64,000 nt of DNA from an uncultured Bordetella sp. (GTDB taxonomy: Bacteria; Pseudomonadota; Gammaproteobacteria; Burkholderiales; SG8-39): positions 19,902 to 83,901 of the forward strand of contig CAYLPI010000001.1 of assembly GCA_964385505.1 (NCBI GenBank), read 5' to 3'. This document shows positions 13,786 through 64,000 of this stretch, one piece after another. A model generated the notes under the pieces. It made no database searches and was not told the DNA's origin. It saw only the letters and a program-made list of their open reading frames with translations. A program made the translations under genes and the position numbers. The first letter of the stretch is position 1; every line of letters begins with the position of its first letter.

Positions 13786-16227
<2,442 letters not shown>

Positions 16228-47016: not shown

Positions 47017-48576
47017 TTAAAGCCCTCCGGCCGTCGCTTCGCGCCGGTGGTCGGCGTGACCGAGCAGGCTGCCATCGGGCATCTGCTCGATGGCTTTTAC
47101 CGAGCCGAAGAAGTTTGATCCGCTGGCGCGGGTCACCGCATGTCCCTTCGTCGCGAGTTGCGCGACCACGCCGTCTTCGAACGCCGTCTCGATCACCTTG
47201 GCGCCGAAACGGTCTGTGCTCCAGCGCGGCGCGTCGATGGCCTGTGCAAGGTCCCAGCCGCGATCCAGGCGGTTCACCATCACCTGCACGCAGGAAATAG
47301 TCTGGCTGATGCCGCCCGGTGTCGCCATCGCGAGGCGAAGCCGGCCGGCGTCGGTGACCAGAACGGGATTGTGCGTGTGGGCCGGCCGCTTGCCGGGCGC
47401 CACGACGTTGGGGTCCTTAGGGTCGGCGCTGAAACACATCATGCGGTTGTTCAGCAGGATGCCGGTGTCCTGGTCGAGGAACGCGCATCCGAACGGCTGG
47501 AAATTGCTCTGCAGCATGACGATGGCGTCGCCGCTGGCCGCGTCGGCCAGTACAAGGCCCGTCGTGCCGCCGGGAGACGGTGGCGTTACTGTGGGTACAT
47601 GGACATGCAAGGCTGCCTGCAATTGCAGTGTGGCGGCCGCGCCCAGCAGCCCGTCCTGGTCGAACACCCGCGTTCTGGAGTCGAACACGCGCGGTTTGGC
47701 CAGCGCCAGCGCGGCAAACGCTGCGCGCATCTCAAAGTCAAGACAGGTGACCGGGTCGCCCGCCAGTTGCGCCGGGTCAAGGCCGGCCAGTGCGTTGAGT
47801 TGCGCCAGCATCAGCGCGCCATAGGCATTGGGAGGCAGGCCATGCACGGTGAGCCCGCGGTAAGACGTTGAGAGCGGGGTCACCCATTCGGGCCGGAATG
47901 CCACAAGGTCGGTCGTGCTGATCAGTCCGCCGGCGGCTCCGACCGCACGCACCAGCGCCTGTGCGACTGCGCCCTGGTAAAACCCCGCGGCGCCGTGTGC
48001 GGCAATCGTGCCCAGCGTGCGCGCGAGTGCCGGCTGCTTTAGCATTGCGCCCGCCGCGAGGGGCTGGCCGTCCGCTACATAGATTGCGCTGCAGCCCGGG
48101 TCGGCGCGAACGGTGGACAACTCGGCGTCCAGATTGCGCAGCAATACCACCGAGGCCGTATGGGCTTGCGCGGCCGCGATGGCCGGTTCGATGAGGCGGG
48201 ACCAGGGTAGCCTGCCATGACGCTCGTGCAGGGCTCCCCACATGCGCGGCAGGCCGGGCACGACTGCGGCGATGGCGCCCTTGGCCGGAATGCCGCCGGC
48301 AAAGCGCGCGGCATCGGCGGTACCCGGTGCCGGTCCCGAGCCGTTCAAGCCCTCGATGCGGCCGCCGACTTGTCCGCCAAAACGCAGCAGTACAAACCCG
48401 TCGCCACCGACCGAATTGGCGTGGGTTGCGACGACCGAGAGCAGCGCCGATGCGCAGACCGCGGCGTCGGCCAGGCTGCCGCCCTGTGCCAGGACGTCCA
48501 GCGCGGAATCGGTGGCCAGAGGGTGGCCGCTGACCACCATGAAGCGCTCCGCGTGGACGGTCCGCTGGCGAGGCAT
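47017..48576 (-). CDS. gamma-glutamyltransferase-family protein
   Basis: 519 aa, FMVVSGHPLATDSALDVLAQGG. Candidate autoprocessing Thr in PGGTTGLVLAD. No signal peptide seen. Confidence 0.85.
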   Translation of the reverse strand: MPRQRTVHAERFMVVSGHPLATDSALDVLAQGGSLADAAVCASALLSVVATHANSVGGDGFVLLRFGGQVGGRIEGLNGSGPAPGTADAARFAGGIPAKGAIAAVVPGLPRMWGALHERHGRLPWSRLIEPAIAAAQAHTASVVLLRNLDAELSTVRADPGCSAIYVADGQPLAAGAMLKQPALARTLGTIAAHGAAGFYQGAVAQALVRAVGAAGGLISTTDLVAFRPEWVTPLSTSYRGLTVHGLPPNAYGALMLAQLNALAGLDPAQLAGDPVTCLDFEMRAAFAALALAKPRVFDSRTRVFDQDGLLGAAATLQLQAALHVHVPTVTPPSPGGTTGLVLADAASGDAIVMLQSNFQPFGCAFLDQDTGILLNNRMMCFSADPKDPNVVAPGKRPAHTHNPVLVTDAGRLRLAMATPGGISQTISCVQVMVNRLDRGWDLAQAIDAPRWSTDRFGAKVIETAFEDGVVAQLATKGHAVTRASGSNFFGSVKAIEQMPDGSLLGHADHRREATAGGL

Positions 48577-48579
48577 CGC

Positions 48580-49536
48580 TCAGGCCTCGCCAGTACGCGG
48601 CTGTCGCGGACGGCGCTCGACCGGCTCGAACTCCTTGGCGACTTCGCGGATTGCCTGGCGCAAAAAACGGTGGCCCGGATCGCGATGGGTGCGCTCGTGC
48701 CAGATCATCAGGATGTTCGGGTCGGCCAGTGCCAGCGGCGGTTTGAGCAACTGCAGCGACAGCATGCTCGCCAGCTCGCGGACGATACGCTCGGGCACGG
48801 TTGCGATCAGATCGGTGCCCGCAACCACGGCGCTCGACACCAACAGATCCGGTGTCCGCACGCCAACAATGCGGCTGCGCCGGCGGCGCTTGAGCGCCCG
48901 CTCGACACTCACCTCGATCGTTGAAACCGGTGAGGAGCCGGCGCCCAGCACCACGTGCGGAATGCTCAGGTAGTCCTCAAAGCTGATCTTGCCGCGAATG
49001 CGCGGATGTCCGCGCCTGGCGATGCAGGCAAGGCGCAGCCGGAACAGCGGTTGTGCGTGCAGCCCGGAGGAGACGCTGGGCGGGTAGCCAAGCACCATGT
49101 CGCATTCGTTGGCCTCGAGCATTTCGTGGGTCCGCCGCACGTCCGCAGGCTGCATCATCAGACGAACCCCCGGCGCGCGGTCCTCGAGGTGGCGCACCAG
49201 CCTGGGCAGCATCGAAAAAGCCAGCGAAGAGAGCGCGACGATGCGAAAGTCCATCGTGGTGCTCCCCGGCTCGAAGCGCTCGTGCCCGGATAGCGCATCC
49301 TCAATCAGGCGCAGCGCTTCGCGCGCCTGCGCTGCGGCGTGCAGCGCCCGCGGCGTCGGCGTCATGCCCTGGCGGGTGCGAACGAGCAGCGGGTCGCCGA
49401 AAACCAGCCGCAGCCGCGCCAGCACCTCGCTCATCGCCGGCTGGCCGATGCCGATGCGGCTTGCGGCACGGGACACGTGGGCTTCTGTCACCAGCGCGTC
49501 GAGGCAGGCGAGCATGTGCACATCAAGGGACTTCAT
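48580..49536 (-). CDS. LysR-family transcriptional regulator
   Basis: ORF 48580..49578, trimmed to MKSLDVHMLACLDALVTEAHVSRAASRIGIGQPAMSEVLARLR (wHTH). Confidence 0.88.
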   Translation of the reverse strand: MKSLDVHMLACLDALVTEAHVSRAASRIGIGQPAMSEVLARLRLVFGDPLLVRTRQGMTPTPRALHAAAQAREALRLIEDALSGHERFEPGSTTMDFRIVALSSLAFSMLPRLVRHLEDRAPGVRLMMQPADVRRTHEMLEANECDMVLGYPPSVSSGLHAQPLFRLRLACIARRGHPRIRGKISFEDYLSIPHVVLGAGSSPVSTIEVSVERALKRRRRSRIVGVRTPDLLVSSAVVAGTDLIATVPERIVRELASMLSLQLLKPPLALADPNILMIWHERTHRDPGHRFLRQAIREVAKEFEPVERRPRQPRTGEA

Positions 49537-49616
49537 CCGCCTATTGTAGCCACACGGAGGCGACATCGCCGACATCAACCCAGTCGATATTGCTTATCGT
49601 CCATGGCATATAGACC

Positions 49617-49637
49617 TTACGTGCCGCAGCGGCGTAA
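49617..49637. promoter_or_regulatory. candidate LysR-type operator (T-N11-A dyad)
   Basis: TTACG tgccgcagcgg CGTAA in the 125-bp divergent spacer between the LysR gene and the Mo-enzyme operon. Confidence 0.35.
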
Positions 49638-49661
49638 AGTGCTTGCTTTAAGGAACAATTG

Positions 49662-52094
49662 ATGGAAGCTGCGGCACGCACCGCCACCGGATGGGACCGT
49701 CTTGCCGAGCCTTCGTGGATTGGCTCGGGCGTGCACCGCCTCGAAGACCGGCGCCTGCTGGTCGGCCACGGCCGCTTCCTCGCCGATGTGGACCTGCCCG
49801 GCATGCGCAATGTGGCCTTTGTGCGCTCCAGCGTCGCGCATGGCGTTCTCGGTGCGATTGCCGCGCCGGCGGGGACGGCGCAAGGGCTGGTCTGGACGGC
49901 AAACGAACTGCAAGGTGTGGCGCGGCCCATGGTCGCCGGGCTGCTGCGCGACGGCTTTCGCCGCGCCGCCTACCCCGCGCTCGCCACCAAACGGGTGCGC
50001 TTTGTCGGTGAAGCCATTGCCGCGGTCATCGGTGGCAGCCGCGCCGAGGCCGACGACCTCGCCGAGGCCATGACCGTCGTCATCGAGCCGCTGGACGCTA
50101 CGGTGGACGCCCTGGCAGCCCTCGCGCCCGGTGCGCCGCGCATTCACGCCGACTGGCCCGACAACAGTTACCTCACGCTCGAGCGCGCGAGCGCCGGTTT
50201 TGACGCGGCGGTTGCGGCGGCCGAGGTGCACATGACGCGACGCTTTCGCATGGCACGCGCCGGGCCGATGCCGATAGAGACCCGCGGCTGTGTCGCCTGG
50301 TTTGACCGGCGCAACGACCAACTGGTGTTGTGGACTTCGACCCAACGGCCGCACCTGATACGCAGTTTTTTGGCGCAGCACCTGGTCGGCTTTGACGAAA
50401 GGCGGGTGCGCGTGGTCGTGCCCGACGTCGGCGGGGCGTTCGGCGTGAAAACCAATTTTTATCCCGAGGAACTCGCGCTTGCGGCCATGGCCGTGCAGCT
50501 TGATCGGCCGCTGCGCTGGATCGAAACGCGTTCCGAACACATGCTGAGCGCCTGTCACGCGCGCGAGCAGTTTCAGACGGTTACGGCGCACGCCATGCGC
50601 GACGGTACACTCGTCGCACTCGATGTGGACATCGTCGGCGACGGCGGTGCCTACTCGATGATCACATCAACCAGCGCGATCGAGGCGAACATGGCGGTCA
50701 GCGTCCTGCCCGGTCCCTACCGTATCGGGCAGTACCGGTTTCGCGCGCGCTCGGCCTGCACCAACAAGACGCCGATAGGCCCGTACCGCGGCGTCGGGCG
50801 GCCGTCGGCGGTGTTCGCGATGGAACGCACCATCGACGAACTGGCGCTTGAACTGCAATTGCAGCCCAATGCGGTAAGGCTGAAAAACGTCGTCACTCCG
50901 GCGGAGTTTCCGTGGAAGACCGCGTCCGGCCTTACCTACGACAGCGGCGACTACCCCGGCCTGATCCGGGCCGCGGAGCGGGCGATGCACGACGCCGGCA
51001 ACAGCCCGGCCGGCGCCCACGAACGCATTGGCACCGGCTTTGCGATGTATGTCGAACAGACGGCCCACGGAGCGGCGGAATTCGTTGCGCGTGGATCGCC
51101 GGTGTTGTATGGGTTTGAATCGGCGCGGGTGAAGCTCGATTTGAGCGGCACGCTCACCGTGGAGGTGGGTGTCCTGTCGCAGGGCCAGGGCCTGGAGACC
51201 ACGCTGGCGCAGGTTGCCGCAGCGGTGAGCGGGTTGCCGCTGCAGCATATCAGCGTGCGCCAGGGCGACACCGATGTTTGTCCCTACGGCATGGGCACCG
51301 TGGCGTCGCGCTCAATGGTCAAATCCGGCGGCGCGGTGTACCACGCCTGTCTCAAACTGACCGACAAGCTGCGCGTGATCGCCGCATCGCAGTTCGGTTG
51401 CACCGCCGCGCAGGTGGTGCTCGCCGGTGGTGCCGCGCACCACGGTGCACGCAAACTCGACTATTCAGAGCTGGCCGACATCGCATGGCAGAACGTGCAA
51501 AAGCTGCCCGCCGGCGTCGAGCCTGGCCTGGAATTTCTGCACCTGTACCGGCCGGAGGTCGAGACCGGCACCTATGCCTCGGGCATGCATGCCGCGCGCG
51601 TGGCCGTGGATATGGAGACCGGTGCGGTGCGCATTATCGACTATGTCGTCGTCGAGGACTGTGGCCAGCAGATCAATCCGGTGATCGTCGAGGGCCAGGT
51701 GCGCGGCGGCGTGGCGCAGGGTATAGGCCAGGCGTTGTCGGAGGCGTTTCGCTTTGATGAAGCGGGCCAGCCGCTTGCGGGCACCCTGATGGACTATGCG
51801 CTGCCCGGATGCGCCGACATGCCGGACATCCGGATCGAGCACCAGCACACCCTTTCGACCTTCAGCGTGTTTGGCATGAAGGGCACCGGCGAGGGCGGCG
51901 CAATCGCGCCGCCTGCGGCCATCGCCAACGCCGTCGGCAATGCGCTTGCCGCGCTCAATATCGGTGTGCACGAAGTGCCCCTTACCGCCAACGCGGTCTG
52001 GAACGCGCTGCATGCCGCGCAGCGACGAAGTGGCGGGGACGGCGCGCAACGCATCTACATTGGCAACCTTCAATCAGCAAAGGAATCCGCATGA
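49662..52094 (+). CDS. xanthine dehydrogenase / CoxL-like molybdopterin-binding large subunit
   Basis: ATG 49662 follows AAGGAA (track start is TTG 49659). 810 aa, GGAFGVK, GPYRGVGRP (form-II CoxL-like AYRGAGR position), FGMKGTGEGG. Confidence 0.88.
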   Translation: MEAAARTATGWDRLAEPSWIGSGVHRLEDRRLLVGHGRFLADVDLPGMRNVAFVRSSVAHGVLGAIAAPAGTAQGLVWTANELQGVARPMVAGLLRDGFRRAAYPALATKRVRFVGEAIAAVIGGSRAEADDLAEAMTVVIEPLDATVDALAALAPGAPRIHADWPDNSYLTLERASAGFDAAVAAAEVHMTRRFRMARAGPMPIETRGCVAWFDRRNDQLVLWTSTQRPHLIRSFLAQHLVGFDERRVRVVVPDVGGAFGVKTNFYPEELALAAMAVQLDRPLRWIETRSEHMLSACHAREQFQTVTAHAMRDGTLVALDVDIVGDGGAYSMITSTSAIEANMAVSVLPGPYRIGQYRFRARSACTNKTPIGPYRGVGRPSAVFAMERTIDELALELQLQPNAVRLKNVVTPAEFPWKTASGLTYDSGDYPGLIRAAERAMHDAGNSPAGAHERIGTGFAMYVEQTAHGAAEFVARGSPVLYGFESARVKLDLSGTLTVEVGVLSQGQGLETTLAQVAAAVSGLPLQHISVRQGDTDVCPYGMGTVASRSMVKSGGAVYHACLKLTDKLRVIAASQFGCTAAQVVLAGGAAHHGARKLDYSELADIAWQNVQKLPAGVEPGLEFLHLYRPEVETGTYASGMHAARVAVDMETGAVRIIDYVVVEDCGQQINPVIVEGQVRGGVAQGIGQALSEAFRFDEAGQPLAGTLMDYALPGCADMPDIRIEHQHTLSTFSVFGMKGTGEGGAIAPPAAIANAVGNALAALNIGVHEVPLTANAVWNALHAAQRRSGGDGAQRIYIGNLQSAKESA

Positions 52095-53092
52095 AAACCA
52101 TGATCCGTTCGTTGGTATTGCTACTTGCCGTCGTGTTGGCGGGTGCGCCGGTGCCGGCATTTGCACAGACCGCACCCGCAGGCGCGGCGCCAGGTTACCC
52201 GTCAAAGCCGATCCGCATCATCGTGCCGTTTCCACCCGGCGGACAGACCGACATCGTCGCCCGCTTCATTGCCGAGGGACTGACCAAGGCCTGGGGGCAG
52301 CAAGTCGTGGTGGAGAACCGTGCCGGCGCCGGCGGCACCATCGGCACCGACTATGTCGCCAAAGCGGCGCCCGATGGATACACGCTGCTGCTATGCACGC
52401 TGGCGGCCAATTCGATCGCGCCCAGCGTCTATCCCAAGCTGCCGTATGACGCGGGCAAGGATTTCACGCCCATCATGGCGCTCACCGGAACGCCTTCTGT
52501 CATCGGCATCAATCCGGCGCTGCCGGTCAAGAACCTGGAAGAGTTCATTGCCTACGTCAAAGCGCGCCCGGGCGAACTTGCGTTCTCCTCGCCGGGGGCG
52601 GGCGTGTCCAGCCACCTGGCGATGGAAAATTTCGCGCTCACCGCGGGGCTCAGGATGATCCATGCCCCGTACAAGGGCAGCGCGCCGGCGTTGAACGCGG
52701 TAATGACCGGTGAAGTTGCCGCGACCTTCGATCCGATCTCGACCTTGGCCCCGCTCGCCAAGGCCGGAAGGGTGCGTGCCATCGCCATGTCGGGGGCAAG
52801 GCGCTCATCCCTGCTTCCCGATGTCCCGACGCTGGCAGAAGCAGGCCTGCGCGGGGTCGAGTCGTATGCCTGGAACGGCCTGATGGGACCCGCGGGGATG
52901 CCGCGCGATATCGTCGCCAGGTTGCACCGGGAGGTCGACATCATCATCAAGAGCGCCGGTCTTCGCGACAGGATGAACGCGCTCGGCACGGACATACTCG
53001 ATATGGGACCCGATGAGTTTGCCACCTATGTGCGCGTCGAGACCGAAAAGTGGGGCGTGATCGCGCGCCGCGTCGGCGCCAAGGCGGAGTGA
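52091..53092 (+). CDS. Bug-family (TctC-like) substrate-binding protein
   Basis: Real part of track ORF 51809..53092. ATG 52091 overlaps the upstream stop (ATGA). MKTMIRSLVLLLAVVLAGAPVPAFAQ...PSKPIRIIVPFPPGGQTD. Confidence 0.88.
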   Translation: MKTMIRSLVLLLAVVLAGAPVPAFAQTAPAGAAPGYPSKPIRIIVPFPPGGQTDIVARFIAEGLTKAWGQQVVVENRAGAGGTIGTDYVAKAAPDGYTLLLCTLAANSIAPSVYPKLPYDAGKDFTPIMALTGTPSVIGINPALPVKNLEEFIAYVKARPGELAFSSPGAGVSSHLAMENFALTAGLRMIHAPYKGSAPALNAVMTGEVAATFDPISTLAPLAKAGRVRAIAMSGARRSSLLPDVPTLAEAGLRGVESYAWNGLMGPAGMPRDIVARLHREVDIIIKSAGLRDRMNALGTDILDMGPDEFATYVRVETEKWGVIARRVGAKAE

Positions 53093-54180
53093 GCGCTGCG
53101 GACGCCAGCCAGGCGGGTTTTGTCGGCGCCGCCGCGGTGCCGCATGCGCCACAGATGCTGTCGCTGCCGCGCAGCGAGGACGCCGCGCAGGTGGCGCGCG
53201 TGCGCGCTGCAATGCAACGCATCGGCGACGGTTTTCGCGCGCAGCGGCCGGACCTGGTGATCGTGATCGGCAACGATCACGGCGACGACTTCATCGTACG
53301 CTCGGTACCGGCCTTCATGTTTCACTGCGGCCCGCGCGCGGCCGGACGCGACGGCCACGGCGGCCACTGGGCCGTTGACGGCGAGGCCGGCTACCGCCTG
53401 GTCGAATTGATGCAGGACGAGGGCTTCGATCCGGCCTTCACGCTCGACGCGCAGCTTGGTACGTTTTTCACCATTCCGATCGAGTTCATGGGCTGGTCGC
53501 GCGAAACCAGCGTGCTGCCGCTGTTTGTCAATTCCTATGTGCCGCCGCAACCCTCGGCGGCGCGCTGTTTCGCGTTCGGACAGGCCTTGTCGCGTGCGGT
53601 GGTGCGCATGGGACGAAGGGCCGTGCTGGTGGCGAGCGGCGGTCTGTCACATTATCCGGGCACCGCGGCGTATGCCGAGCCCGGGCCGCACAATGCGACC
53701 GACGAGAAAATTGTCGAACGCATTAGCGCGGGCAATTTGCGCCATCTGCTGTCCCTTGACGAGGCGGCGCTCGATGCCACCGGCAACATCGAGCTGCGCT
53801 CGTGGTTGATACTCGCCGGCGTCGTAGGTGAGCGCAGGCCTGATGTCGTCAGCTACGAGCCCAACTGGCATCACAACTATGGCACCTTCGGCTGGACTTC
53901 GCTCGGCGCGCTGCCGGCGCCCAAGCTTTATTACACACCCAATCCGACACGGCGGGCCGAACTCGCGCGTGCGCTGTATGCGCTGCGTACCGATGTGTCT
54001 GCGGCGCGGGCGTGGCTGGCCGGTCCGGCTGCGTTTGCGGCCGGATACGCGCTTGCCGCGGACGAGCGCGCCGCGCTCGCGATACTCGACGAGGCGCAGA
54101 TGCGCGATGTGTTTGGCATCCATGCCCTGCTGACCTCTGGCGCGATCCGACACGTTGAAAAACTGAAAAAGGGCAACTGA
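53089..54180 (+). CDS. class-III extradiol ring-cleavage dioxygenase, LigB-like domain fused to a LigA-like C-terminal domain
   Basis: Start set at GTG 53089 (GTGA overlap with the Bug stop, AAGGCGGAG upstream). N-terminus FVGAAAVPHAPQ, VIGNDHGDDF, SGGLSHYPG. C-terminal ~90 aa resemble the small LigA subunit, as in gallate-dioxygenase-type fusions. Confidence 0.8.
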   Translation: MSAADASQAGFVGAAAVPHAPQMLSLPRSEDAAQVARVRAAMQRIGDGFRAQRPDLVIVIGNDHGDDFIVRSVPAFMFHCGPRAAGRDGHGGHWAVDGEAGYRLVELMQDEGFDPAFTLDAQLGTFFTIPIEFMGWSRETSVLPLFVNSYVPPQPSAARCFAFGQALSRAVVRMGRRAVLVASGGLSHYPGTAAYAEPGPHNATDEKIVERISAGNLRHLLSLDEAALDATGNIELRSWLILAGVVGERRPDVVSYEPNWHHNYGTFGWTSLGALPAPKLYYTPNPTRRAELARALYALRTDVSAARAWLAGPAAFAAGYALAADERAALAILDEAQMRDVFGIHALLTSGAIRHVEKLKKGN

Positions 54181-54611
54181 TGAGCAATCCGGCCGTACCG
54201 GCCCGTCAAGGCGGGCGGACTATCGTCACATCCGACGCGCTGCACAAGGTGAAGGTGCCGCTCTCCCATGCGGTCAGGGTCGGCAACCTGGTATTCGTTT
54301 CCGGCACGCCGCCCTACCAGACCGGGCCGGGCGCGGGCTATCGGCAGCTTGCCGTGGGTGACTTTGCCGCGCAGTTCCACCAGAGCATGGCCAACATGAA
54401 GCTGATTCTCGAGGCTGCCGGGTCGTCCCTCGACCGGGTCTGCAAGGTGGTGGTGTTTCTCGGTCGCCGCACGGATTTCGCGCAGATGAACGAACTGTAT
54501 CGCGGCTATTTCAGCGAAGGCGATTATCCGGCACGCACCACGGTCGAGGTCGGGCATGTCGTGCCGGACGTCCTGCTCGAAATCGAATGCGTCGCGGAAG
54601 TGGTGCAATGA
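54180..54611 (+). CDS. RidA (YjgF/YER057c/UK114) family protein
   Basis: 143 aa, VGNLVFVSGTPPY...YPARTTVEVGHVVPDVLLEIECVA. 1-nt overlap (TGATG) with the dioxygenase stop. Confidence 0.88.
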   Translation: MSNPAVPARQGGRTIVTSDALHKVKVPLSHAVRVGNLVFVSGTPPYQTGPGAGYRQLAVGDFAAQFHQSMANMKLILEAAGSSLDRVCKVVVFLGRRTDFAQMNELYRGYFSEGDYPARTTVEVGHVVPDVLLEIECVAEVVQ

Positions 54612-55905: not shown

Positions 55906-55937
55906 ATGTACAGATGTACAGATGTACAGATGTACAA
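55906..55937. repeat. 8-bp tandem repeat ATGTACAG, four copies
   Basis: ATGTACAG ATGTACAG ATGTACAG ATGTACAA, preceded by TGTGAAT t TGTGAAT (55893-55907). Each unit holds the palindrome TGTACA. Confidence 0.85.
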
Positions 55938-56021: not shown

Positions 56022-57047
56022 ATGAAAACACCGATGCCCAATGCCTTGAAAAAAACCTCCGCAGCCCGTTCACGCCATGGCGTGTTCGTGTCTGTGCTTG
56101 TTGCCCTGCTCTCAGTGCTTGCGCCCGGTAGCGCAAGCGCCCAAGCCGCATGGCCGACCAAACCGCTGAAAATCATCGTGCCCTTCCCGCCGGGTGGCAC
56201 CACCGACAACCTCGCGCGCCTGCTGGCGCAAAAACTCTCCGAAGCCTACAAGCAGAACGTGCTGGTGGAGAATCGTGCCGGTGCCGCCGGCGTGATCGGC
56301 TCCGATGTCGTGGCCAAATCCGCCCCCGACGGCTACACGCTGCTGCTCTCGAGCCTCGCCTCCCAGGTGATTGCGCCGGTGATCCAAAAGACCCCCTACG
56401 ACGGCTTGCGCGATTTTACGCACATCGCCATTCTTGGCGGTCCGCCCACCGCGATCGCCGTCGGGCCCGGGCTGCCCGATATCAAGGACCTGCAATCCTT
56501 TATTGCGCTGGCCAAGGCCAAGCCCAACAGCGTCGGCTATGCCACACCTGGCAACGGCACCCATGGTCATGTCATCGCCGAGTTGTTCAAGCAGTTGAGC
56601 GGCGCGCAGATCGCACATGTGCCGTACAAGGGTTCCGGTCCGGCCTTCGCCGACCTCGTAGCCGGCCACGTGCCCGCCGCGTCGCTGACGATTTCAGCTT
56701 TGGTGCCGCAAATGCGCACCGGCAAAATCCGTGCGCTCGCCAGCACCTCGGCCAAGCGCCTGGCGGATTTTCCCGATGTGCCGACCTTTGCCGAACTGGG
56801 CTACCCCGGCATGACTGCCATCACGTGGTTTGGCATCGCCGGGCCGGCGAAAATGCCGGCCGAGGTGACCGAGAGTCTCAACCGTGAAATCCGCAAAGCC
56901 ATGCAGGCTGCCGATGTGCGTGAGCGCCTGCAGGCCGAGACCTTCGAGATTCCCGACTACAACGTGACGCAGGCCGGTGACTATGTGCGCAGCGAAACGG
57001 CGCGCTGGCAACCGGTGGCGCGCGCGTCTTCGGCCAAAAATGACTAG
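56022..57047 (+). CDS. Bug-family (TctC-like) substrate-binding protein
   Basis: 341 aa. Signal peptide ending SASAQAA, then PTKPLKIIVPFPPGGTTD. Confidence 0.88.
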   Translation: MKTPMPNALKKTSAARSRHGVFVSVLVALLSVLAPGSASAQAAWPTKPLKIIVPFPPGGTTDNLARLLAQKLSEAYKQNVLVENRAGAAGVIGSDVVAKSAPDGYTLLLSSLASQVIAPVIQKTPYDGLRDFTHIAILGGPPTAIAVGPGLPDIKDLQSFIALAKAKPNSVGYATPGNGTHGHVIAELFKQLSGAQIAHVPYKGSGPAFADLVAGHVPAASLTISALVPQMRTGKIRALASTSAKRLADFPDVPTFAELGYPGMTAITWFGIAGPAKMPAEVTESLNREIRKAMQAADVRERLQAETFEIPDYNVTQAGDYVRSETARWQPVARASSAKND

Positions 57048-57119: not shown

Positions 57120-58916
57120 ATGCCCACTCCCCTGCCACCAGGCACCGATAATTTCTGGGGCGAATACGGCGCCGACGAATGGTCGGACGCTATTGTCGCG
57201 TCAATGAAGCTCGGCGGCATCGAGCATTTGTTTTTTGTCTCTGGCACCGAGATGAACTACTACCAGGAGGCCACCGCCAAGGCGCAGGTGCGCGGCTGGC
57301 CGGCGCCCAAACTGGTGACGATGATCCACGAATCGGTGGCGCTCAATGCGGCGCTGGGTGTGGCCATGGTCAGCGGCCAGCCTTCGGCCGCGACAGTACA
57401 CGTTGATGTTGGCACACTGCATTACGGTGCCGCGGTGCATACCGCCTGGCGCGGCGCTTATCCGGTGCTGATGACCGCAGGCACCGGCCCACGCGCCTTT
57501 CCGGGTTCGATGCGCGGCGCGCGCGACTCGCATGTGCAGTGGTTGCAGGAGCCGCGCGACCAGGGCGAGATCGTGCGCCAGTACACCAAGGCCGATCACC
57601 GGCTCGAACATCAGGACAATCCGGGCTTGATGGTGAGCCGACTGCTGCAATTGGCGATGAGCGAACCCAGGGGGCCGGTGTACATGTCCATCCCGCGCGA
57701 GACGGCGATGTTGCCGTTGCCGGGCACCACGCGCTTTCCCACGCGCGACCAGCTCGGCGTGTCGCGGCCGCTGTGGCCCGACCCGGATGACGCACGCGCC
57801 ATCGCGCGCTGGCTGGTGAAATCGGAGAACCCGGTGATTTTCACCGACCGCCTCGGCCATGACCCCGACGCCGTGCCCGAACTGGTACGACTGGCAGAAC
57901 TGCTGGCGCTACCGGTCAATGAGTCGAGCAATTCGGACCGCATCAATTTCCCGATGACGCACGCACTGTACGGTACCGGCCCGGCTGCGCCCGATGCCGA
58001 CGTGGTGCTGGTGTTCGAGAGCGTCGCGCCCTACCGGCCCGGACTCGAATCGCCGCCGGCGCAGGCAAAAATCGCTTGGATAAGCGTCGATCCGGTGATG
58101 TCGCGTTTCAAGACCATGGAATTTCGCGCCGACCTGTGGATTGCCGCGACGCCGGGCAAGGTGGCGCGCGCGATACACGATGCGGCCACCGGCATGCTGG
58201 ACCATACCGACCTCGCGCGCATTGCCGCACGCCGGCGGCGGCTCGAGGAAAAGCGTCACAAAGCCTTGGCGCTGCAGACGCAGCAAGCCGCAGCCGCCGG
58301 CAAGCTCGGGCACCCGACCGGGCGCTGGGTCGCGCACGAACTGGGCGGCCTGCTGACGCCCGAAGCCATCGTGCTCAACGACGGCCTCAGCAACGGACCC
58401 TTTGTGCAGAATTACGCCATGCGCGCGCAACCCGGAACCTATTACCGCAGCGGCAGCAGCTCGGGCGGGTGGGGTTCGGGCGCCGCCTTCGGCGCCAAAC
58501 TGGCCGCACCGGAACGCGATGTGGTGCTGGCGAGTGGCGACGGTTACTTTGCGTTCGGCACACCGATGGCGGCGCTGTGGGCCGCGACTTATCACAAGGC
58601 GCCGTTCCTGTCGGTGGTGTTCGTCAACGGCAGCTATAGCACCGGCACCTCGGGCTTGCGCAAATCCTATCCCGAAGGCTATGCGGTAAAGAGCGGCAAT
58701 TATGCGGGCGGCAGTTTTGACCCGCCCCCCGATTTCGCCAAACTGTCCGAAGCCGCCGGTGGTTATGGCGAATACGTCACCGCCACGGCCGCGGTCGGTG
58801 CGGCTTTGCAGCGCGGTCTGCGCGAAGTACGCGCCGGGCGGCCGGCAGTCATCGCGGTGCGTGTACCGGGACCCTTGCAGCAGGACGCAGCGCCGGCGAC
58901 CGCCGGCGGCGATTAA
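57120..58916 (+). CDS. thiamine-diphosphate-dependent enzyme (acetolactate-synthase-like fold)
   Basis: 598 aa. TPP-binding GDG...N motif SGDGYFAFGTPMAALWAATYHKAPFLSVVFVNGSY. Confidence 0.85.
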   Translation: MPTPLPPGTDNFWGEYGADEWSDAIVASMKLGGIEHLFFVSGTEMNYYQEATAKAQVRGWPAPKLVTMIHESVALNAALGVAMVSGQPSAATVHVDVGTLHYGAAVHTAWRGAYPVLMTAGTGPRAFPGSMRGARDSHVQWLQEPRDQGEIVRQYTKADHRLEHQDNPGLMVSRLLQLAMSEPRGPVYMSIPRETAMLPLPGTTRFPTRDQLGVSRPLWPDPDDARAIARWLVKSENPVIFTDRLGHDPDAVPELVRLAELLALPVNESSNSDRINFPMTHALYGTGPAAPDADVVLVFESVAPYRPGLESPPAQAKIAWISVDPVMSRFKTMEFRADLWIAATPGKVARAIHDAATGMLDHTDLARIAARRRRLEEKRHKALALQTQQAAAAGKLGHPTGRWVAHELGGLLTPEAIVLNDGLSNGPFVQNYAMRAQPGTYYRSGSSSGGWGSGAAFGAKLAAPERDVVLASGDGYFAFGTPMAALWAATYHKAPFLSVVFVNGSYSTGTSGLRKSYPEGYAVKSGNYAGGSFDPPPDFAKLSEAAGGYGEYVTATAAVGAALQRGLREVRAGRPAVIAVRVPGPLQQDAAPATAGGD

Positions 58917-58934
58917 CGGCCGGCGGTTAGCGGT

Positions 58935-59081: not shown

Positions 59082-59219
59082 CATCCTTTGCCCCTCTTCA
59101 TTCAACATCGTGCCGCCTCTTCGAGTCGGGAATAGCCCTTGTTTTTGCTTTGCTGATTCGCTGGCAATCGGCTGAAAAGCCGCGCCAGTCGGGCATTTCC
59201 AGCCATCCACCCATACGGC

Positions 59220-60977
59220 TTAGGTGGCCAGCGTCGCCGGCGCGAACAATTCCTCTATCGTCACCGGCCTTGCCTGCAAGCCATCCTCGCGCGACCAGCG
59301 CAACTGGGTGTCCAGCACGGCGCCGTTGGCGGCGAGGCCGTAGGGCCAGAAGTCATCGCCCATCAACGCGCGCGTGCGCCGCAGTTCGCCGGTGCCCCAG
59401 GGCAGCGTGACCTTGGGCGCCTGGACGATCTCGAGTTCGCTCACCGCCAATTGCTTGGCTTCGCAAAAGGCGTGATACAGCGCGAGGGGCAGGTCCGGAT
59501 GTTTTTCGACCAGCGATTTTTTCAGCGCCAGCGCATGCATGATGGGAAACACGCCCTTGCGCCCGAACCAGTCGCGCTCCGCCGCTTCCGGGTCGGCGAA
59601 CAGGCGCCGGATGCGCCCGTCGGCGGCGGCGGCCGGTTCGCGCAGCGAAATGATGGCGTCGAGTTCGCCCTCCAGCATGCGCGCCTCGAGGCTGGTGCCC
59701 GGCGGCAGTATGCGGAAATCCAGGCCCTCGGGAATCTCCGGTAGCGGAAAGCCCAGCGGCTTGGTGCGCTCGCGCTCGCCGACGCGCCAGTGAATCGAAC
59801 GGGTATCGACGCCGTATTCGTCGCGAAGAACGCCGCGCAGCACCACTGCGGCGGTCATGTCGTATTCCTGCAGGCCCACGCGCATGCCGGCGAGGTCGGA
59901 CGGCTGGGCGATGCCGCTGTCGCTGCGCACGAACAGTGCGCCATGGCGGAAGCTGCGCGAGGGGAAGACCGGGAGCAGCCAGTAGGGAAAGTCCCGCCCC
60001 GAAGGCAGCGATCGCGTAGTGATGGTGTTGCTGAGCGAAATCTCGGTCAGGTCGTAGGGCGCGGCACCGAAGGCGAGCGCAATCGATTCCTCGGGCCGCA
60101 ATATCGTGCAGTCGAGCTCGGCACCCTGCACGCCGACCCGCCCGTCGATGAGCGGCTGCGTCCTGTCGTAGCGCCAGAACGCCGTGGTGATCCGCGGCAC
60201 GCCCACGCGACGGCCGTTACGCTTTGAGCGCTTTGACGGTCTTGCGCGGCGCGGCAGCGTGAACAAGCCCTTGGGCAGCGTGTTGATGAAGGCCAGCGTC
60301 TCTTTGAGGCTGACCACGTCGGCGTACTTGGCGTGCATGTCGCAAAGATTGATGGCGTGCGAGACTTCGACGCGGTCGAAGCAGCCTTCGGCCACCACGG
60401 CGACGCGGTAGTTGTTGGAAAACGCGTCGATCACCGTGGCGCGCACGCAGCCGCTGGTCGATACGCCGACCACCAGCAGCGAATCCACCTTGAGGTCAAT
60501 GAGGAAGGAATTGAGCGGCGTGCCGTAAAACGCGCTCGGCTTGGTCTTGAGCACCACCACATCTTGCGGCGCGGGCGCGATCTCGGCGACGATTTCGTTG
60601 CTGAGGATGTCCTCTTCCACATCCTCGAGCTCTCGCGAGTTTTTCCAGCGCCAGCTGCCGGCGTCAAAGCCGTCCGGGCGACGCGTGTTGGTCGAATAAA
60701 ACACCGGCAGCTCGCGCGCATGGCAGGCGTCGATGAGCTTGCGGATGACCTTGACCGCCGCCCAGCCCTCCTCGCCACAGGAGTTGCGCCAGCGCTTGAT
60801 CGATTCGAGTATCGGCGCCGGTTCACCGCCGACAAAATTGGTGCTGACGTCGACGATCATGAGGGCCGGACGCTGACCAAAACCCATGTTAGCGCCGTAC
60901 CCCGAGGCATCAAGCACCTTGCGATCGCGCTCGGTGATGTACTGCATCCACACCGGTTCCTTTTCCGTATTACTCAT
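59220..60977 (-). CDS. fusion protein: isochorismatase-family hydrolase (N) plus 4,5-dihydroxyphthalate-decarboxylase-like / NMT1-fold domain (C)
   Basis: 585 aa. The N-terminal ~232 aa carry the cysteine-hydrolase triad context (LMIVDVSTNF, VVLKTKPSAF, VGVSTSGCVRATV). Basic linker LPRRARPSKRSKRNGRRVGVPR. C-terminal ~327 aa start ITTAFWRYDRTQPLIDGRV...YDLTEISLSN, as in PhtD-type proteins. GGAGAA lies upstream of the ATG. Confidence 0.8.
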   Translation of the reverse strand: MSNTEKEPVWMQYITERDRKVLDASGYGANMGFGQRPALMIVDVSTNFVGGEPAPILESIKRWRNSCGEEGWAAVKVIRKLIDACHARELPVFYSTNTRRPDGFDAGSWRWKNSRELEDVEEDILSNEIVAEIAPAPQDVVVLKTKPSAFYGTPLNSFLIDLKVDSLLVVGVSTSGCVRATVIDAFSNNYRVAVVAEGCFDRVEVSHAINLCDMHAKYADVVSLKETLAFINTLPKGLFTLPRRARPSKRSKRNGRRVGVPRITTAFWRYDRTQPLIDGRVGVQGAELDCTILRPEESIALAFGAAPYDLTEISLSNTITTRSLPSGRDFPYWLLPVFPSRSFRHGALFVRSDSGIAQPSDLAGMRVGLQEYDMTAAVVLRGVLRDEYGVDTRSIHWRVGERERTKPLGFPLPEIPEGLDFRILPPGTSLEARMLEGELDAIISLREPAAAADGRIRRLFADPEAAERDWFGRKGVFPIMHALALKKSLVEKHPDLPLALYHAFCEAKQLAVSELEIVQAPKVTLPWGTGELRRTRALMGDDFWPYGLAANGAVLDTQLRWSREDGLQARPVTIEELFAPATLAT

Positions 60978-61009
60978 GCATTTCTCCTACAAACGGGGAT
61001 CGTACGCGG

Positions 61010-61795
61010 CTAAAAACGCGTGGCAAGCGCCTTGGTTTCCTTGATACGGTGCGACACATGCCAGGGGCAGACGAGGCGCTCTGCGAGGTCCACTGCGTAA
61101 AAGAGGATCGTTCCGGCAACGCCCAAGAGCACGATGGAAGCGAAAACACGCACGGTCTGGAACATGCTTTGCGCGGTGATGATGACGTAGCCCAGGCCTT
61201 CCTGCGAAGCGACGAACTCACCCGCAATGGCGCCGACGAGCGCCAGCGAAATCGCCACTTTCATGCCTGCAAACATGTGCGGCAGCGCGCCGGGGAAGCG
61301 GATTTTCCACAAGGCCTGGATGCGCGATCCGCGCATGGTGCGTATCAGGTCAAGCGCGTCCGGATCGGCCGAACGAAGGCCGAGCACCGCATCGATCACC
61401 ACTGCGAAAAGCGCGATGAGGAAAGACACCGCCACCTTGGATGGCGTGCCGGTGCCAAGCCAGATGATAAAGAGCGGTGCGAGCGCGATCTTGGGGATGC
61501 TGTTGAGGGACACCAGGAGCGTATAAAGCGTGTTCTCCAGCCAGCGCGAGTAGACGATACCGATCGCCGCCGCCACGCCCAGCAACAGCGCCAGGCTGAA
61601 TCCCAGCATGGTTGTGTACAGGGTGTAGAGCGTATGCATGGCATACCACTTGGGCTCGCCCACAATTTCAAGGAGCACGGCCGATGGCGGCGGCAGGAAG
61701 TGCGCCGGCAGGCCAAGCAGCCGTACCAGCGCCTCCCAGACGACAAAAAACGCGAGGATGACCGCGGAAACGGAAAAGACGCGGTTGTTCATCAC
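61010..61795 (-). CDS. NitT/TauT-family ABC transporter permease
   Basis: 261 aa, six hydrophobic segments. 4-nt overlap with the ATPase gene. Confidence 0.88.
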   Translation of the reverse strand: MMNNRVFSVSAVILAFFVVWEALVRLLGLPAHFLPPPSAVLLEIVGEPKWYAMHTLYTLYTTMLGFSLALLLGVAAAIGIVYSRWLENTLYTLLVSLNSIPKIALAPLFIIWLGTGTPSKVAVSFLIALFAVVIDAVLGLRSADPDALDLIRTMRGSRIQALWKIRFPGALPHMFAGMKVAISLALVGAIAGEFVASQEGLGYVIITAQSMFQTVRVFASIVLLGVAGTILFYAVDLAERLVCPWHVSHRIKETKALATRF

Positions 61796-62643
61796 ACCGC
61801 TCCCGCCGGCACAGCGCGGCCCTGCCGCGCTGCATCCATCACGCCCATGGACAAGAATAGCCCGCGTATATGGCGCACCATCGTGCCAAATTCCGGCGTT
61901 TCACGTATATCAAGATCACGCGGGCGCGGTAGCGTCACGTCGACGATCTCAACGATGCGCCCCGGTGAGGGGGACATCACCACCACGCGATCGCCAAGGA
62001 ACACCGCCTCCTGTATCGAATGGGTGACAAAGAACACCGTCTTCATGTCCCCCATCCAGACACGCTGCAACTCGAGGTTCAGTTCGTCACGCGTCATGGC
62101 ATCGAGCGCACCGAAGGGCTCATCCATCAGTAAAAGACTGGGGTTCATCAGCAAGGCGCGGCAAATGGACACGCGCTGTCGCATACCCCCGGATAATTCC
62201 CAGGGATAGCGGTCCTCAACACCGGTCAGACCCAGCAGGGCGAGCAGCGCGCGCGCTTTTTGTTCCCAGCCGGCCGGTTCGAGCCGGTGCACCTCTATGG
62301 GTAGCATTACGTTTTCGAGGACGGTGCGCCAGTCAAGCAGCACATCGCGCTGGAACACCACCCCGAGGCCGTCTGGCGGACCGTCGTGGGGAAGCCCGCC
62401 GACAAGGATGCTGCCGCTCGTGACGTGATCGAGCCCGGCAAGACAGCGCAACAGCGTGCTCTTGCCGCAACCGCTTGGCCCGAGCACGCTGACAAACTCA
62501 CCCGAACCGATGCCAAGATCAATGCCCGAGAGGGCAACCACGTCACCGCGGCGCGAGCGGTAGGTCTTGCCAACGCCGCGAATATCGACAAAGGCCGATC
62601 CGGCAGAGGCGGAATGTTCGCCGGGTCGGCCCCCTTCCATCAT
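61792..62643 (-). CDS. NitT/TauT-family ABC transporter ATP-binding protein
   Basis: Walker A GPSGCGKSTLL, signature LSGGMRQRVSICRAL, Walker B LLLMDEPFGALD. Confidence 0.9.
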   Translation of the reverse strand: MMEGGRPGEHSASAGSAFVDIRGVGKTYRSRRGDVVALSGIDLGIGSGEFVSVLGPSGCGKSTLLRCLAGLDHVTSGSILVGGLPHDGPPDGLGVVFQRDVLLDWRTVLENVMLPIEVHRLEPAGWEQKARALLALLGLTGVEDRYPWELSGGMRQRVSICRALLMNPSLLLMDEPFGALDAMTRDELNLELQRVWMGDMKTVFFVTHSIQEAVFLGDRVVVMSPSPGRIVEIVDVTLPRPRDLDIRETPEFGTMVRHIRGLFLSMGVMDAARQGRAVPAGAV

Positions 62644-63641
62644 TGCGGCAGGAATTTATTGGTGTAGAAGTCGGCCGATTTCCAGCCCGGCTTGATGATG
62701 CTGACCTGCTCCATGGCTTTGAGCGCGTCCTGCCAGTCCGCCTCGGCCTGCCAGCCCAGCGGCCGGCCCTTGGTGGCGGGCGTGGCAAAGAGGGGCATGT
62801 AGGCCTTGAGCTGGCCCATCATCACCTTGCGGTCAAGGCGCAGGCCTGCGCGCTGCGCCATCATGGCGTCGATCGCCTCCTCTTCCTTGCCGCTGAAGAT
62901 GTAATCCCAAACACGCTTGTTGACCGCGACCACCTTGGCCAGCATGTCGGCGCGCTTGTCCACGGCGTCCTTCTTTACCACCAGCCCGTAGCCGGGGATG
63001 CGCAAGCCCACGTCGGCGAAGAGGATGCCGGTCGAAGGCCGTGTCTCCGAAACGATGGGACCGAAAAACGCAACCGTGGAGAGCGCCCCCTCGACCTGAC
63101 CCGAGGCGTAGGTGGCAACCATGGCCTGGCTGTCGACGTTGATCACCTGGATGTCATTGCGCGTCACGCCGCCGGCCTTGAAAAAGGCATCGACAAAGGG
63201 TGCGGTCGCCGCGCCGTTGGGCACGACGATCTTCTTGCCCACAAGGTCCTTCAGCGTCTTGTAATTGCCCGCGATGGGCACGATCAGGCCGTTGTCGCCG
63301 GCGCGCACAAATCCCATGATCGAGGTCACCGGCAGGCCGTTGGCCACCGCCGGCGCCATGGCGCCAAGCTGCGCGAAACCGACGTCAATCTGGCCCGCCG
63401 CCACCTGCTGGATCGTTGCACCAGAGCCCTTGCCATCGAGCACCTCGACGTTCAGTCCCGCTTCCTTGAACCAGCCTTTTTGCATCGCGAGGTGCAGCCC
63501 GGCATGCATGCCGTGCGGTGACCAGTCGGTCATGATGCTGATTTTCTCCTGCGCCAGTGCGGCACCGGAGGAGAACATTGCCACGGCCAAGGCACCGGGC
63601 AGCAGCCGCTTCAATACCGAAAACACCTGAGTACGCATCAT
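62640..63641 (-). CDS. NMT1/THI5-like ABC transporter substrate-binding protein
   Basis: Track ORF starts at GTG 63665. ATG 63641 is preferred because AGGAGA lies 5 nt upstream. Signal peptide MMRTQVFSVLKRLLPGALAVAMFSSGAALAQ. Confidence 0.85.
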   Translation of the reverse strand: MMRTQVFSVLKRLLPGALAVAMFSSGAALAQEKISIMTDWSPHGMHAGLHLAMQKGWFKEAGLNVEVLDGKGSGATIQQVAAGQIDVGFAQLGAMAPAVANGLPVTSIMGFVRAGDNGLIVPIAGNYKTLKDLVGKKIVVPNGAATAPFVDAFFKAGGVTRNDIQVINVDSQAMVATYASGQVEGALSTVAFFGPIVSETRPSTGILFADVGLRIPGYGLVVKKDAVDKRADMLAKVVAVNKRVWDYIFSGKEEEAIDAMMAQRAGLRLDRKVMMGQLKAYMPLFATPATKGRPLGWQAEADWQDALKAMEQVSIIKPGWKSADFYTNKFLPQ

Positions 63642-63878
63642 CTTTGTCTCCTGAAAGAACCCCACCCGGGCCGGCGGAATCGGTACCGCGGCCGCTTGAC
63701 AGCGTCACGACGGGTATCGATACTGAAAACGCCGACGCAACTAACCAGGCAGTACAATAGCGGCAATTTCCCGCCGGTGCAATCGGCGGTGGCGGCGGGG
63801 GCCTGAAACAGACTTGCCGCAGCGCAGATTTCCGATTCGTTTTACGATATCCACGACATTCCTGCCACGAGGCCGCCC

Positions 63879-64000
63879 ATGAGCGCAATTCCCAAGCCCG
63901 TCCCGCAACGTCCCATGGACGCCTTCTGGATGCCCTTCACCGCCAATCGCCAGTTCAAGGCCAAGCCGCGCATGCTGGCGCGCGCCGAGGGGATGCACTA
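63879..64000 (+). CDS. class-III aminotransferase, omega-amino-acid:pyruvate type (N-terminal fragment, continues beyond window)
   Basis: Own translation MSAIPKPVPQRPMDAFWMPFTANRQFKAKPRMLARAEGMH. The FWMPFTANRQFK segment is characteristic of beta-alanine/omega-amino-acid pyruvate transaminases. Confidence 0.7.
   Translation, partial: MSAIPKPVPQRPMDAFWMPFTANRQFKAKPRMLARAEGMH

Follow-up and report, generated by a model that had tools for sequence, protein, structure and literature searches.

A stretch of 64,000 nucleotides from an uncultured Bordetella sp., referred to here as the window and numbered from its first nucleotide, carries a dense set of catabolic genes from 47.0 kb to its right edge, and this locus raises the questions of whether these genes encode a single pathway and which compound they would degrade. 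The original prediction had placed them all in one pathway for a nitrogen-containing aromatic acid. The gene families that it named were all detected between 47 and 64 kb by Pfam and NCBIfam profile searches, but comparison with related loci did not sustain the single pathway. We judge it somewhat better than an even chance that independent catabolic and uptake modules, at least three in number (U1, U2 and U3), have been gathered after the ilvA gene. U1 (47017-55759) contains genes for a protein of the GGT (gamma-glutamyltransferase) family, a LysR-type regulator, a molybdenum (Mo) hydroxylase large subunit, a Bug/TctC periplasmic carboxylate receptor, a LigB-type extradiol dioxygenase, a Rid-family deaminase and a flavin adenine dinucleotide (FAD) monooxygenase. 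This is the sole coherent, widely conserved unit of the region.

Conservation was examined by aligning 24 homologues of the U1 dioxygenase and scoring 53 genomic loci with dioxygenase relatives for relatives of every window protein. Neighbors were counted by tblastn in the 36 loci where the dioxygenase relative was flanked by 4 kb or more on each side; clustering based on open reading frames (ORFs) undercounted neighbors, and the tblastn counts were used. A GGT-like gene lay beside the dioxygenase relative in 23 of the 36 loci, genes for a Rid-family protein, a Mo large subunit and a Bug receptor in 19 each, genes for a flavin monooxygenase and CoxG in 16 each and a gene for an FAH-family hydrolase in 14. 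The Rid gene, belonging to one of two subfamilies, was no more than 8 kb from the dioxygenase gene and directly followed it in most maps. Neither the thiamine pyrophosphate (TPP) enzyme nor the isochorismatase of the window had a counterpart beside the dioxygenase relative (0/36 loci for each), and the ATP-binding cassette (ABC) importer of U3 was never found near dioxygenase relatives in the loci scored. A gene like that for 4,5-dihydroxyphthalate decarboxylase (PhtD) adjoined the dioxygenase relative in one locus only of the 53 (L029), where it was directly upstream. The neighborhood comparison across Burkholderiales thus upheld U1 as a conserved unit of the predicted island, with U2 and U3 falling outside that unit.

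The usual order was regulator/Bug-Mo large subunit-FAD subunit-2Fe-2S subunit-LigB-(Rid)-flavin monooxygenase-(CoxG)-GGT, and this Mo-type order was found in Bordetella, Verticiella, Pigmentiphaga, Ramlibacter, Variovorax and Ralstonia. A second version was present in Achromobacter, Caballeronia and Burkholderia, in which the Mo enzyme and the monooxygenase gave way to a LigXa_C-type Rieske oxygenase, a reductase of the PDR type and a GFO/IDH/MocA dehydrogenase. Cultured strains that carry dioxygenase relatives include Pigmentiphaga kullae K24, Achromobacter denitrificans NBRC 15125 and Verticiella sediminum. Because LigB, Rid and GGT were retained while the Mo enzyme and monooxygenase were replaced, the conserved core consists of the LigB, Rid and GGT-like proteins, and the hydroxylating front ends are exchangeable. 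Orthologues of the LysR regulator, with 54 to 58% identity, adjoined the dioxygenase gene in three loci (L008, L009 and L010). A search of a plasmid collection yielded distant relatives only, with <40% identity for the TPP enzyme and <32% for the dioxygenase. A further arrangement was observed in Stellaceae and other alphaproteobacterial metagenome-assembled genomes (L015, L017, L019, L024-L026, L030, L035 and L038), where genes for an M20 amidohydrolase of the hippurate-hydrolase type and a luciferase-like oxidoreductase adjoined the dioxygenase relative, the GGT-like gene was replaced and the locus lay beside def, fmt and truA.

U2 and U3 are units separate from U1. U2 consists of a second Bug/TctC receptor gene (56022-57047, plus strand; PF03401, 223 bits) and a gene for a TPP-dependent enzyme of the PRK08327 family (57120-58916, plus strand), which scored 480.7 bits with NF006203 against a cutoff of 456 and whose best solved relative, benzoylformate decarboxylase, was distant (E = 5e-24). 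U3 starts with a PhtD homologue (59220-60206, minus strand), matched over residues 5 to 327 by 9jp7_A (E = 5e-70), and an isochorismatase-family amidohydrolase in frame with it (60207-60977, minus strand; PF00857, 104 bits) for which the NCBIfam matches, to RutB, BiuH and nicotinamidase, were weak. These are followed on the minus strand by genes for a NitT/TauT-type importer, namely, an ABC permease (61010-61795; BPD_transp_1), an ABC ATPase (61792-62643; ABC_tran) and an NMT1-type binding protein (62640-63641; NMT1). The window closes with the 5' end of a class III (omega) aminotransferase gene (63880-64000, plus strand; first 40 codons), the full gene being present, with its Pfam match, in 99.9%-identical contigs. 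Beyond the edge, the order was aminotransferase, TetR, glutathione S-transferase, a 787-amino-acid Mo large subunit and divergent genes for FAD and 2Fe-2S subunits, after which the near-identical contigs encoded the beta and alpha subunits of nitrile hydratase and a second NitT/TauT importer (L061, 1-6929). One might speculate on a nitrile-to-amide-to-acid-to-CO2 sequence catalyzed by the nitrile hydratase, the isochorismatase-type amidase and the PhtD-like decarboxylase.

The five-gene importer/isochorismatase/PhtD block of U3 also occurred, without U1 or U2, in a relative with 70% identity, where the aminotransferase, TetR and second Mo large-subunit genes again lay to one side of it and DUF465, lgt, EamA and ilvD to the other. 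The regulators of the modules differ (LysR for U1 and TetR for U3), and their orientations are opposite. These data bear on the alternative of a single coevolved island, running from the GGT gene to the aminotransferase gene and dedicated to one nitrogen-containing aromatic acid, in which the PhtD-like, isochorismatase and TPP enzymes would belong to the LigB pathway. The modules were adjacent in at least five metagenome contigs of this lineage, and the combined logic would resemble the route from phthalate to protocatechuate and LigAB. The PhtD-like gene of L029 points in the same direction, as does another locus (L059), in which an isochorismatase and PhtD pair adjoins a Rieske and GFO/IDH/MocA pair of the kind that accompanies LigB-Rid-GGT in Achromobacter, Caballeronia and Burkholderia. 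Against the single island stand the absence of the TPP enzyme and isochorismatase from all 36 well-flanked LigB loci, the occurrence of U3 beside lgt and ilvD without the other two units, the difference in regulators and orientation and a spacer of 262 nucleotides (nt) after U1. We therefore regard the single island as quite unlikely. Against the assembly of independent modules count the colocation of U1 and U3 and the loci L029 and L059, which lend weak support to some functional link.

The two domains at the start of U3 had been described as an isochorismatase::PhtD-like fusion. In the window the two parts do form a single ORF of 585 codons (59220-60977, minus strand), so the in-frame fusion exists in this sequence; the bifunctional design does not stand. 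Four contigs from four samples (L001, L002, L004 and L062) were 99.9% identical to the window, and the sole gap against them was one of 10 nt near position 60248. Alignment by blastn with L002 placed the missing GCGCCGCGCC (L002 positions 13130-13139) between positions 60248 and 60249, within a GC-rich short repeat of the form GCGCG/GCGCCGCGCC/GCGCGG. In the near-identical contigs, the isochorismatase (256 amino acids) and the decarboxylase homologue (328 amino acids) are encoded by separate genes that lie 10 nt apart. The best 120 homologues of the decarboxylase part were all stand-alone proteins, nearly all of 320 to 346 amino acids and none of fusion length. Since the near-identical contigs keep two genes and all 120 homologues stand alone, the fusion is a strain-specific deletion or a sequence error and no designed bifunctional enzyme, with both domains left intact. 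As to a pathway of the PhtD type, the window contained no Rieske oxygenase and no dehydrogenase to provide the context.

The position of these modules was examined by comparison with relatives at the same chromosomal site. Profile searches identified proA, leuS, uvrD and ilvA at the end of the core gene content before 47 kb, and a holA-like gene was recognized among them by inspection of its translation. With ilvA as the anchor, a scan of metagenomes retrieved 80 loci (L064-L143) with IlvA proteins 70 to 83% identical, and many of these shared the upstream order proA-holA-lptE-leuS-uvrD-dedA-ilvA. Synteny broke directly after ilvA, and no relative with enough sequence had any of the window genes of 47 to 64 kb downstream of ilvA. 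Toxin-antitoxin pairs, a 1,308-amino-acid protein, a Bug gene or a methyltransferase gene occupied the site in different relatives, and farther from ilvA, genes for a folate cycloligase-like protein, Slt, an epimerase or cca were common to 4, possibly 5, of 6 relatives (gene names in these six were assigned by eye from translations). The region after ilvA is a variable spot, because its content differs among relatives and the window genes occur in none of them. The predicted switch from core to accessory genes was thereby confirmed, as was the truncated phosphatase gene at about 46.95 kb. This histidine-phosphatase remnant (46944-47012, plus strand), which starts IVRHGQTDWNRESRIQGGT, forms the left junction of the variable region; it lies directly after ilvA, corresponds to positions 1 to 33 of the 194 positions of the Pfam profile His_Phos_1 (29.2 bits; cutoff, 21.7) and ends where the stop codon of the GGT-like gene is located. 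No full-length phosphatase gene was detected downstream of ilvA in relatives by a strict motif search.

Taken together, a stretch of the chromosome that varies between strains runs from 47.0 kb, some 28 kb away from dnaA, to at least 10 kb beyond the window. Acquisition as a discrete element is a further matter, and several observations tell against it. GC content hardly changes (0.62 to 0.68 in the region and 0.62 to 0.66 upstream), no tRNA gene was present at 40 to 64 kb, a flanking repeat was not found and no integrase or transposase was seen among the called genes of the window and of the near-identical contigs past its edge. Island is used here to mean a variable region whose right end is outside the window, a mobile element not being proven.

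U1 has the layout of a divergently transcribed catabolic operon. The GGT-family gene (47017-48576; PF01019, 336 bits) and the LysR-type regulator gene (48580-49536; Pfam HTH_1 and LysR_substrate) are cooriented on the minus strand, the start codon of the former lying 3 nt past the stop codon of the latter. A control region (49537-49661) separates them from the plus-strand operon, which encodes the Mo-hydroxylase large subunit of the CoxL/Qor type (49662-52094; Ald_Xan_dh_C, MoCoBD_1 and MoCoBD_2), the first Bug/TctC receptor (52091-53092; PF03401, 237 bits), the LigB-type class III extradiol dioxygenase (53089-54180; PF02900, 94 bits against a cutoff of 26), the RidA/YjgF-family imine/enamine deaminase (54180-54611; PF01042, 97.9 bits) and a group A FAD monooxygenase (54608-55759; PF01494). 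All of the U1 ORFs are intact, and reading of the sequence confirmed the predicted junctions, in order, as ATGA, GTGA, TGATG and ATGA. A palindrome, TTACG-N11-CGTAA, was read directly from the control region at 49617-49637, 25 to 45 nt upstream of the operon start codon, and is a candidate LysR site; its 5-nt arms were not reported by the inverted-repeat tool. Within the 262 nt that separate the monooxygenase gene from the second Bug gene, there are 3.9 copies of the tandem repeat ATGTACAG (55906-55936; Tandem Repeats Finder, 100% matches, score of 62), which might serve as a site for a regulator or be a tract prone to slippage. A scan of 55.6 to 59.3 kb for promoters and terminators gave results at chance level.

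The dioxygenase is central to any proposal for the function of U1. Residues H19, H64, H188 and E235 were invariant in the 24 aligned family members, and we take them to correspond to His12, His61, His195 and Glu242 of LigB. An AlphaFold2 model (pLDDT, 87.8) contained an all-helical LigA-like domain at the C terminus (residues 287 to 362), and the top Foldseek matches of this model were chains of DesB, a fused LigB and LigA protein, over both domains and about 410 columns. The Pfam LigA profile weakly matched 18 of the 24 family members (best E value, 0.0012), the window protein itself being unmatched. The protein is a class III enzyme of the LigB family, and the model gives it fused LigB and LigA-like parts, as in GalA and DesB, which bears out the LigA-like tail of the original prediction. 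Scores against the equivalog models were far below the cutoffs: 45 against 412 for gallate dioxygenase (NF009904), 45 against 837 for protocatechuate 4,5-dioxygenase (NF009912) and 56 to 90 against 286 to 549 for the PRK13370 MhpB models. In profile comparisons, the nearest characterized enzymes were MhpB (E = 3e-19) and LigB (E = 1e-13); the catalytic (beta) subunits of aminophenol dioxygenase gave E values of 0.005 to 0.03 and the noncatalytic alpha subunit one of 2.4e-7.

The GGT-like protein scored 258 with the equivalog for true GGT (TIGR00066), for which the cutoff is 358. Alignment with Escherichia coli GGT detected the replacements R114N, N411F, Q430R, D433C, S462H and S463T. In E. coli GGT, these residues contact the alpha-amino and alpha-carboxylate groups of the gamma-glutamyl moiety. 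The Q430R, N411F, S462H and S463T replacements were present in 19 of 19 cluster-linked homologues; at the position of R114, 17 of these had N and 2 had D, and at that of D433, 17 had E or D and 2 had C. The catalytic elements were invariant in the same 19 homologues: T338 aligns with the T391 nucleophile and G421-G422 with the G483-G484 oxyanion hole. A signal peptide was not seen by eye, and the protein is cytoplasmic. As the catalytic Thr and the Gly-Gly pair are kept and the gamma-glutamyl contacts are replaced, the protein is predicted to be an N-terminal nucleophile (Ntn) amidohydrolase with a GGT fold that acts on some other amide, rather than a true gamma-glutamyltransferase.

The remaining operon proteins gave clues of unequal value. 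The Rid protein scored 90.2 with the model of archetypal RidA (TIGR00004; cutoff, 106.25) and, because it matched PF01042 and stayed below the TIGR00004 cutoff, is assigned to the Rid family with an uncertain subfamily. The best solved relative of the FAD monooxygenase was 2-methyl-3-hydroxypyridine-5-carboxylate oxygenase (MHPCO; 3alm), with an E value of 4e-41 over residues 4 to 336, followed by 6-hydroxynicotinate 3-monooxygenase (NicC; E = 1e-17). The first Bug receptor resembled BugE, Bug27 and terephthalate-binding proteins to about the same degree and gives no clue to the ligand; membrane components of the TctA or TctB type were not seen in the window. Across the region, proteins scored far under the cutoffs of NCBIfam equivalogs, with the exception of the TPP family.

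For the Mo large subunit (810 amino acids), the best solved relative was quinoline 2-oxidoreductase (1t3q_B; E = 6.5e-137), ahead of CO dehydrogenases. The motif GPYRGVGRP and the GTGEGG glutamate motif were read from the translation. The active-site cysteine motif of aerobic CO dehydrogenase is VAYRCSFR; this cysteine was absent, and the score with the corresponding equivalog (TIGR02416) was 451 against a cutoff of 991. No homologue of CoxM or CoxS, the FAD and iron-sulfur (FeS) subunits, was detected in the whole 64-kb window, and the large subunit is in that sense an orphan. Both subunit genes lay beside the Mo large-subunit gene in 18 related loci. The closest relative of U1 (L006) had the same arrangement and was also without the FAD and FeS genes, its Mo large subunit, LigB and monooxygenase being 75%, 73% and 78% identical to those of the window. 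About 7.6 kb past the window edge and about 20 kb from the U1 copy, the 99.9%-identical contigs contain genes for FAD (292 amino acids) and 2Fe-2S (160 amino acids) subunits, adjoining the second, 787-amino-acid Mo large subunit. This distal pair would probably be the partner of the U1 subunit.

These features could also be explained by decay, in that U1 would be a remnant with an incomplete pathway whose FAD and FeS subunits have been lost and whose Mo enzyme is dead. The contrast between the 18 complete loci and the window would agree with this explanation, and there are other lesions in the region, namely, the truncated phosphatase gene and the 10-bp deletion. The U1 ORFs, however, are intact and coupled in translation, genes for a FAD/FeS pair lie at a distance of about 20 kb, the arrangement without these subunits is kept in L006 and another locus (L008) has the rest of the cluster without any Mo subunit. 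Continued selection on the Mo large subunit is suggested by its intact ORF and by its being as conserved in L006 as LigB and the monooxygenase. We hold decay to be very improbable and the U1 orphan large subunit to be probably functional.

Our best guess from these sequence relationships is that the substrate of U1 would be an N-heteroaromatic carboxylate, because the closest solved relatives of its enzymes are quinoline 2-oxidoreductase, MHPCO and MhpB/LigB/DesB and because the GGT-like protein keeps its catalytic residues without the pocket for a gamma-glutamyl group. The leading candidates would be pyridine (di)carboxylates and, among quinoline carboxylates, quinaldate and kynurenate. In the route that we consider the most likely, the Bug protein would capture a carboxylate of the pyridine or quinoline type and the Qor-like Mo enzyme, with FAD and FeS subunits encoded elsewhere, would hydroxylate the carbon beside the ring nitrogen. 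A second hydroxyl group would be added by the MHPCO/NicC-like monooxygenase, the resulting vicinal diol would be opened by extradiol cleavage by the LigB-LigA enzyme, and nitrogen would be released by the Rid deaminase acting on an imine or enamine and the GGT-like Ntn hydrolase acting on an amide. The nitrogen-containing aromatic acid of the original prediction is consistent with the operon, given the Qor, MHPCO/NicC and LigB-type relatives and the conserved Rid and amidohydrolase partners. We propose only tentatively, as possible rather than probable, that U1 represents a widespread new route for N-heteroaromatic acids, in which the LigB-LigA enzyme opens a dihydroxylated pyridine or quinoline, the GGT-fold and Rid enzymes remove the nitrogen and the front ends are interchangeable.

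A number of points weigh against this route. No U1 enzyme is near enough to a characterized one for its substrate to be transferred, and the known substrates of LigB-type enzymes are carbocyclic catechols and aminophenols; we know of no such enzyme for pyridine diols. That two large subunits share one set of FAD and FeS subunits is an assumption, and the L008 cluster raises the possibility that the Mo step is not needed or that the copy in the window is idle. The Rieske and GFO/IDH/MocA variants point to attack on a carbocyclic ring, and Rid-family proteins also include 2-aminomuconate deaminases, so that an aromatic amine is possible as the substrate. Together with the PhtD-like neighbors in L029 and L059, the variants hint at an aza or amino analogue of the route from phthalate through protocatechuate to LigAB.

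An alternative built on these points is that U1 degrades a carbocyclic aromatic amine, aminophenol or amide conjugate and no heterocycle. The GGT-like enzyme would free an arylamine or acid, the monooxygenase would convert it to an aminophenol or catechol, LigB would cleave the ring and Rid would serve as a deaminase of the aminomuconate type. AmnAB and CnbC of the LigB superfamily were among the structural neighbors of the dioxygenase, an M20 amidohydrolase of the hippurate-hydrolase type lay beside the Stellaceae relatives and dihydroxylation of a benzene ring is what the Rieske and GFO variants would suggest. The Qor-like Mo hydroxylase and MHPCO-like monooxygenase, however, are conserved partners in most Burkholderiales loci, and the dioxygenase profile is much nearer to MhpB and LigB than to the catalytic subunits of aminophenol dioxygenases. 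Genes for aminomuconate-semialdehyde dehydrogenase, decarboxylase, hydratase and aldolase were absent from the window. We consider this alternative unlikely. Salvage of catecholate-siderophore fragments by the GGT-like or M20 amidohydrolase was set aside, since it does not account for the Mo hydroxylase or the MHPCO-like monooxygenase.

Comparison with characterized systems placed the N-heteroaromatic route beside several known pathways and within none. The nic and pic systems of Pseudomonas, Bordetella and Alcaligenes share with U1 the logic of a Mo hydroxylase acting beside the ring nitrogen, a flavin monooxygenase that introduces a further hydroxyl group, a ring-opening dioxygenase and an amidase that sets ammonia free. 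Ring opening is of the NicX/PicD type there and of the LigB type here, the nic amidase is the isochorismatase-type NicF rather than a GGT-fold Ntn hydrolase and the regulator here is of the LysR type. U1 also differs in having no deformylase, maleate isomerase or PicC-type decarboxylase, and profile searches of 47 to 64 kb detected no NicX/PicD dioxygenase, deformylase, maleamate amidase, maleate isomerase or Amidohydro_2 decarboxylase.

The quinoline route of Pseudomonas putida 86 proceeds by Qor and OxoOR through 8-hydroxycoumarin and 2,3-dihydroxyphenylpropionate to cleavage of the MhpB type, OxoO being a Rieske oxygenase of the LigXa_C class. U1 resembles this route in that QorL is the nearest relative of the Mo large subunit and the best sequence matches of the dioxygenase are to MhpB, and the variant clusters have a LigXa_C-type Rieske oxygenase with a PDR-type reductase. 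Identities are low, however, QorM and QorS are absent, the Bug receptor suggests an acid as the substrate and, to our knowledge, the quinoline genes that have been described include neither a GGT-like nor a Rid gene. The phthalate route with protocatechuate 4,5-cleavage (pht/oph plus lig/pmd) is similar in that a PhtD homologue and a LigB-LigA dioxygenase occur in one region, and the Rieske oxygenase, PDR-type reductase and GFO/IDH/MocA dehydrogenase of related loci are enzyme types of its upper pathway. By contrast, ligC, ligI, ligJ, ligK, a Rieske oxygenase and a dehydrogenase are absent from the window, the N-handling enzymes of U1 would have no role in that route and the dioxygenase is far under the protocatechuate and gallate cutoffs.

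Vitamin B6 degradation in Mesorhizobium loti involves the best solved relative of the monooxygenase, MHPCO, which acts on a hydroxypyridine carboxylate, but MHPCO itself opens the ring whereas U1 has a separate dioxygenase, and acetamidomethylene-succinate hydrolase and the pyridoxal and pyridoxate enzymes are absent here. In the hpx system of Klebsiella (HpxDE, HpxO and HpxW), a Rieske oxygenase stands in for the Mo hydroxylase, a group A flavin hydroxylase is included and HpxW provides a precedent for a GGT-fold amidohydrolase whose substrate is a small amide acid formed in the breakdown of an N-heterocycle. The GGT-like protein matched HpxW (5hft) with an E value of 3e-23, and there was a match to the HpxO family with one of 1e-28. 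HpxW, however, was less close to the GGT-like protein than were the "cephalosporin acylase" of Bacillus halodurans (2nlz) and E. coli GGT, allantoin and oxalurate genes are absent and the LigB dioxygenase has no hpx counterpart. With the 2-aminophenol (amn/nba/cnb) meta pathway, the Rid-family gene is the only shared family. The dip cluster for dipicolinate was ruled out, being regulated by GntR and independent of molybdenum cofactor. As judged from gene content, U1 thus appears to lack the defining gene sets of the nic, pic, amn, lig/gal, pht and B6 pathways. Literature searches, which leave out some subscription journals, found no characterized cluster that matched U1, in agreement with the original prediction.

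These results have consequences for annotation as well as for function. Hundreds of relatives of the U1 dioxygenase, mostly metagenomic, carry the automatic label 2,3-dihydroxyphenylpropionate dioxygenase, probably wrongly, and their GGT-like neighbors are labeled gamma-glutamyltransferase. The LigB-Rid-GGT-like core offers a testable handle on a catabolic route that characterized clusters do not explain. If the proposal is correct, genes would for the first time be assigned to an orphan pathway, such as that of pyridine dicarboxylates or the classical kynurenate/quinaldate route, and two large enzyme families would gain new catalytic roles. The locus also illustrates that adjacent catabolic genes need not make one pathway, and two features that could be overread have been corrected, the fusion being the outcome of a 10-bp deletion and the Mo enzyme an orphan large subunit.

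The upstream part of the window is a replication-origin neighborhood, with gyrB, dnaN and dnaA at 13786-18902 on the minus strand and yidC, mnmE, the gene for a GTP-type phosphoenolpyruvate (PEP) carboxykinase and parB downstream at 19689-31679. GC content dipped to 0.53 at 16 to 18 kb. Between the PEP carboxykinase gene and parB, a segment of short ORFs (26381-30004) had a lower GC content of 0.57 to 0.59, and a third Bug/TctC receptor gene was present at 33266-34234 amid the upstream housekeeping genes.

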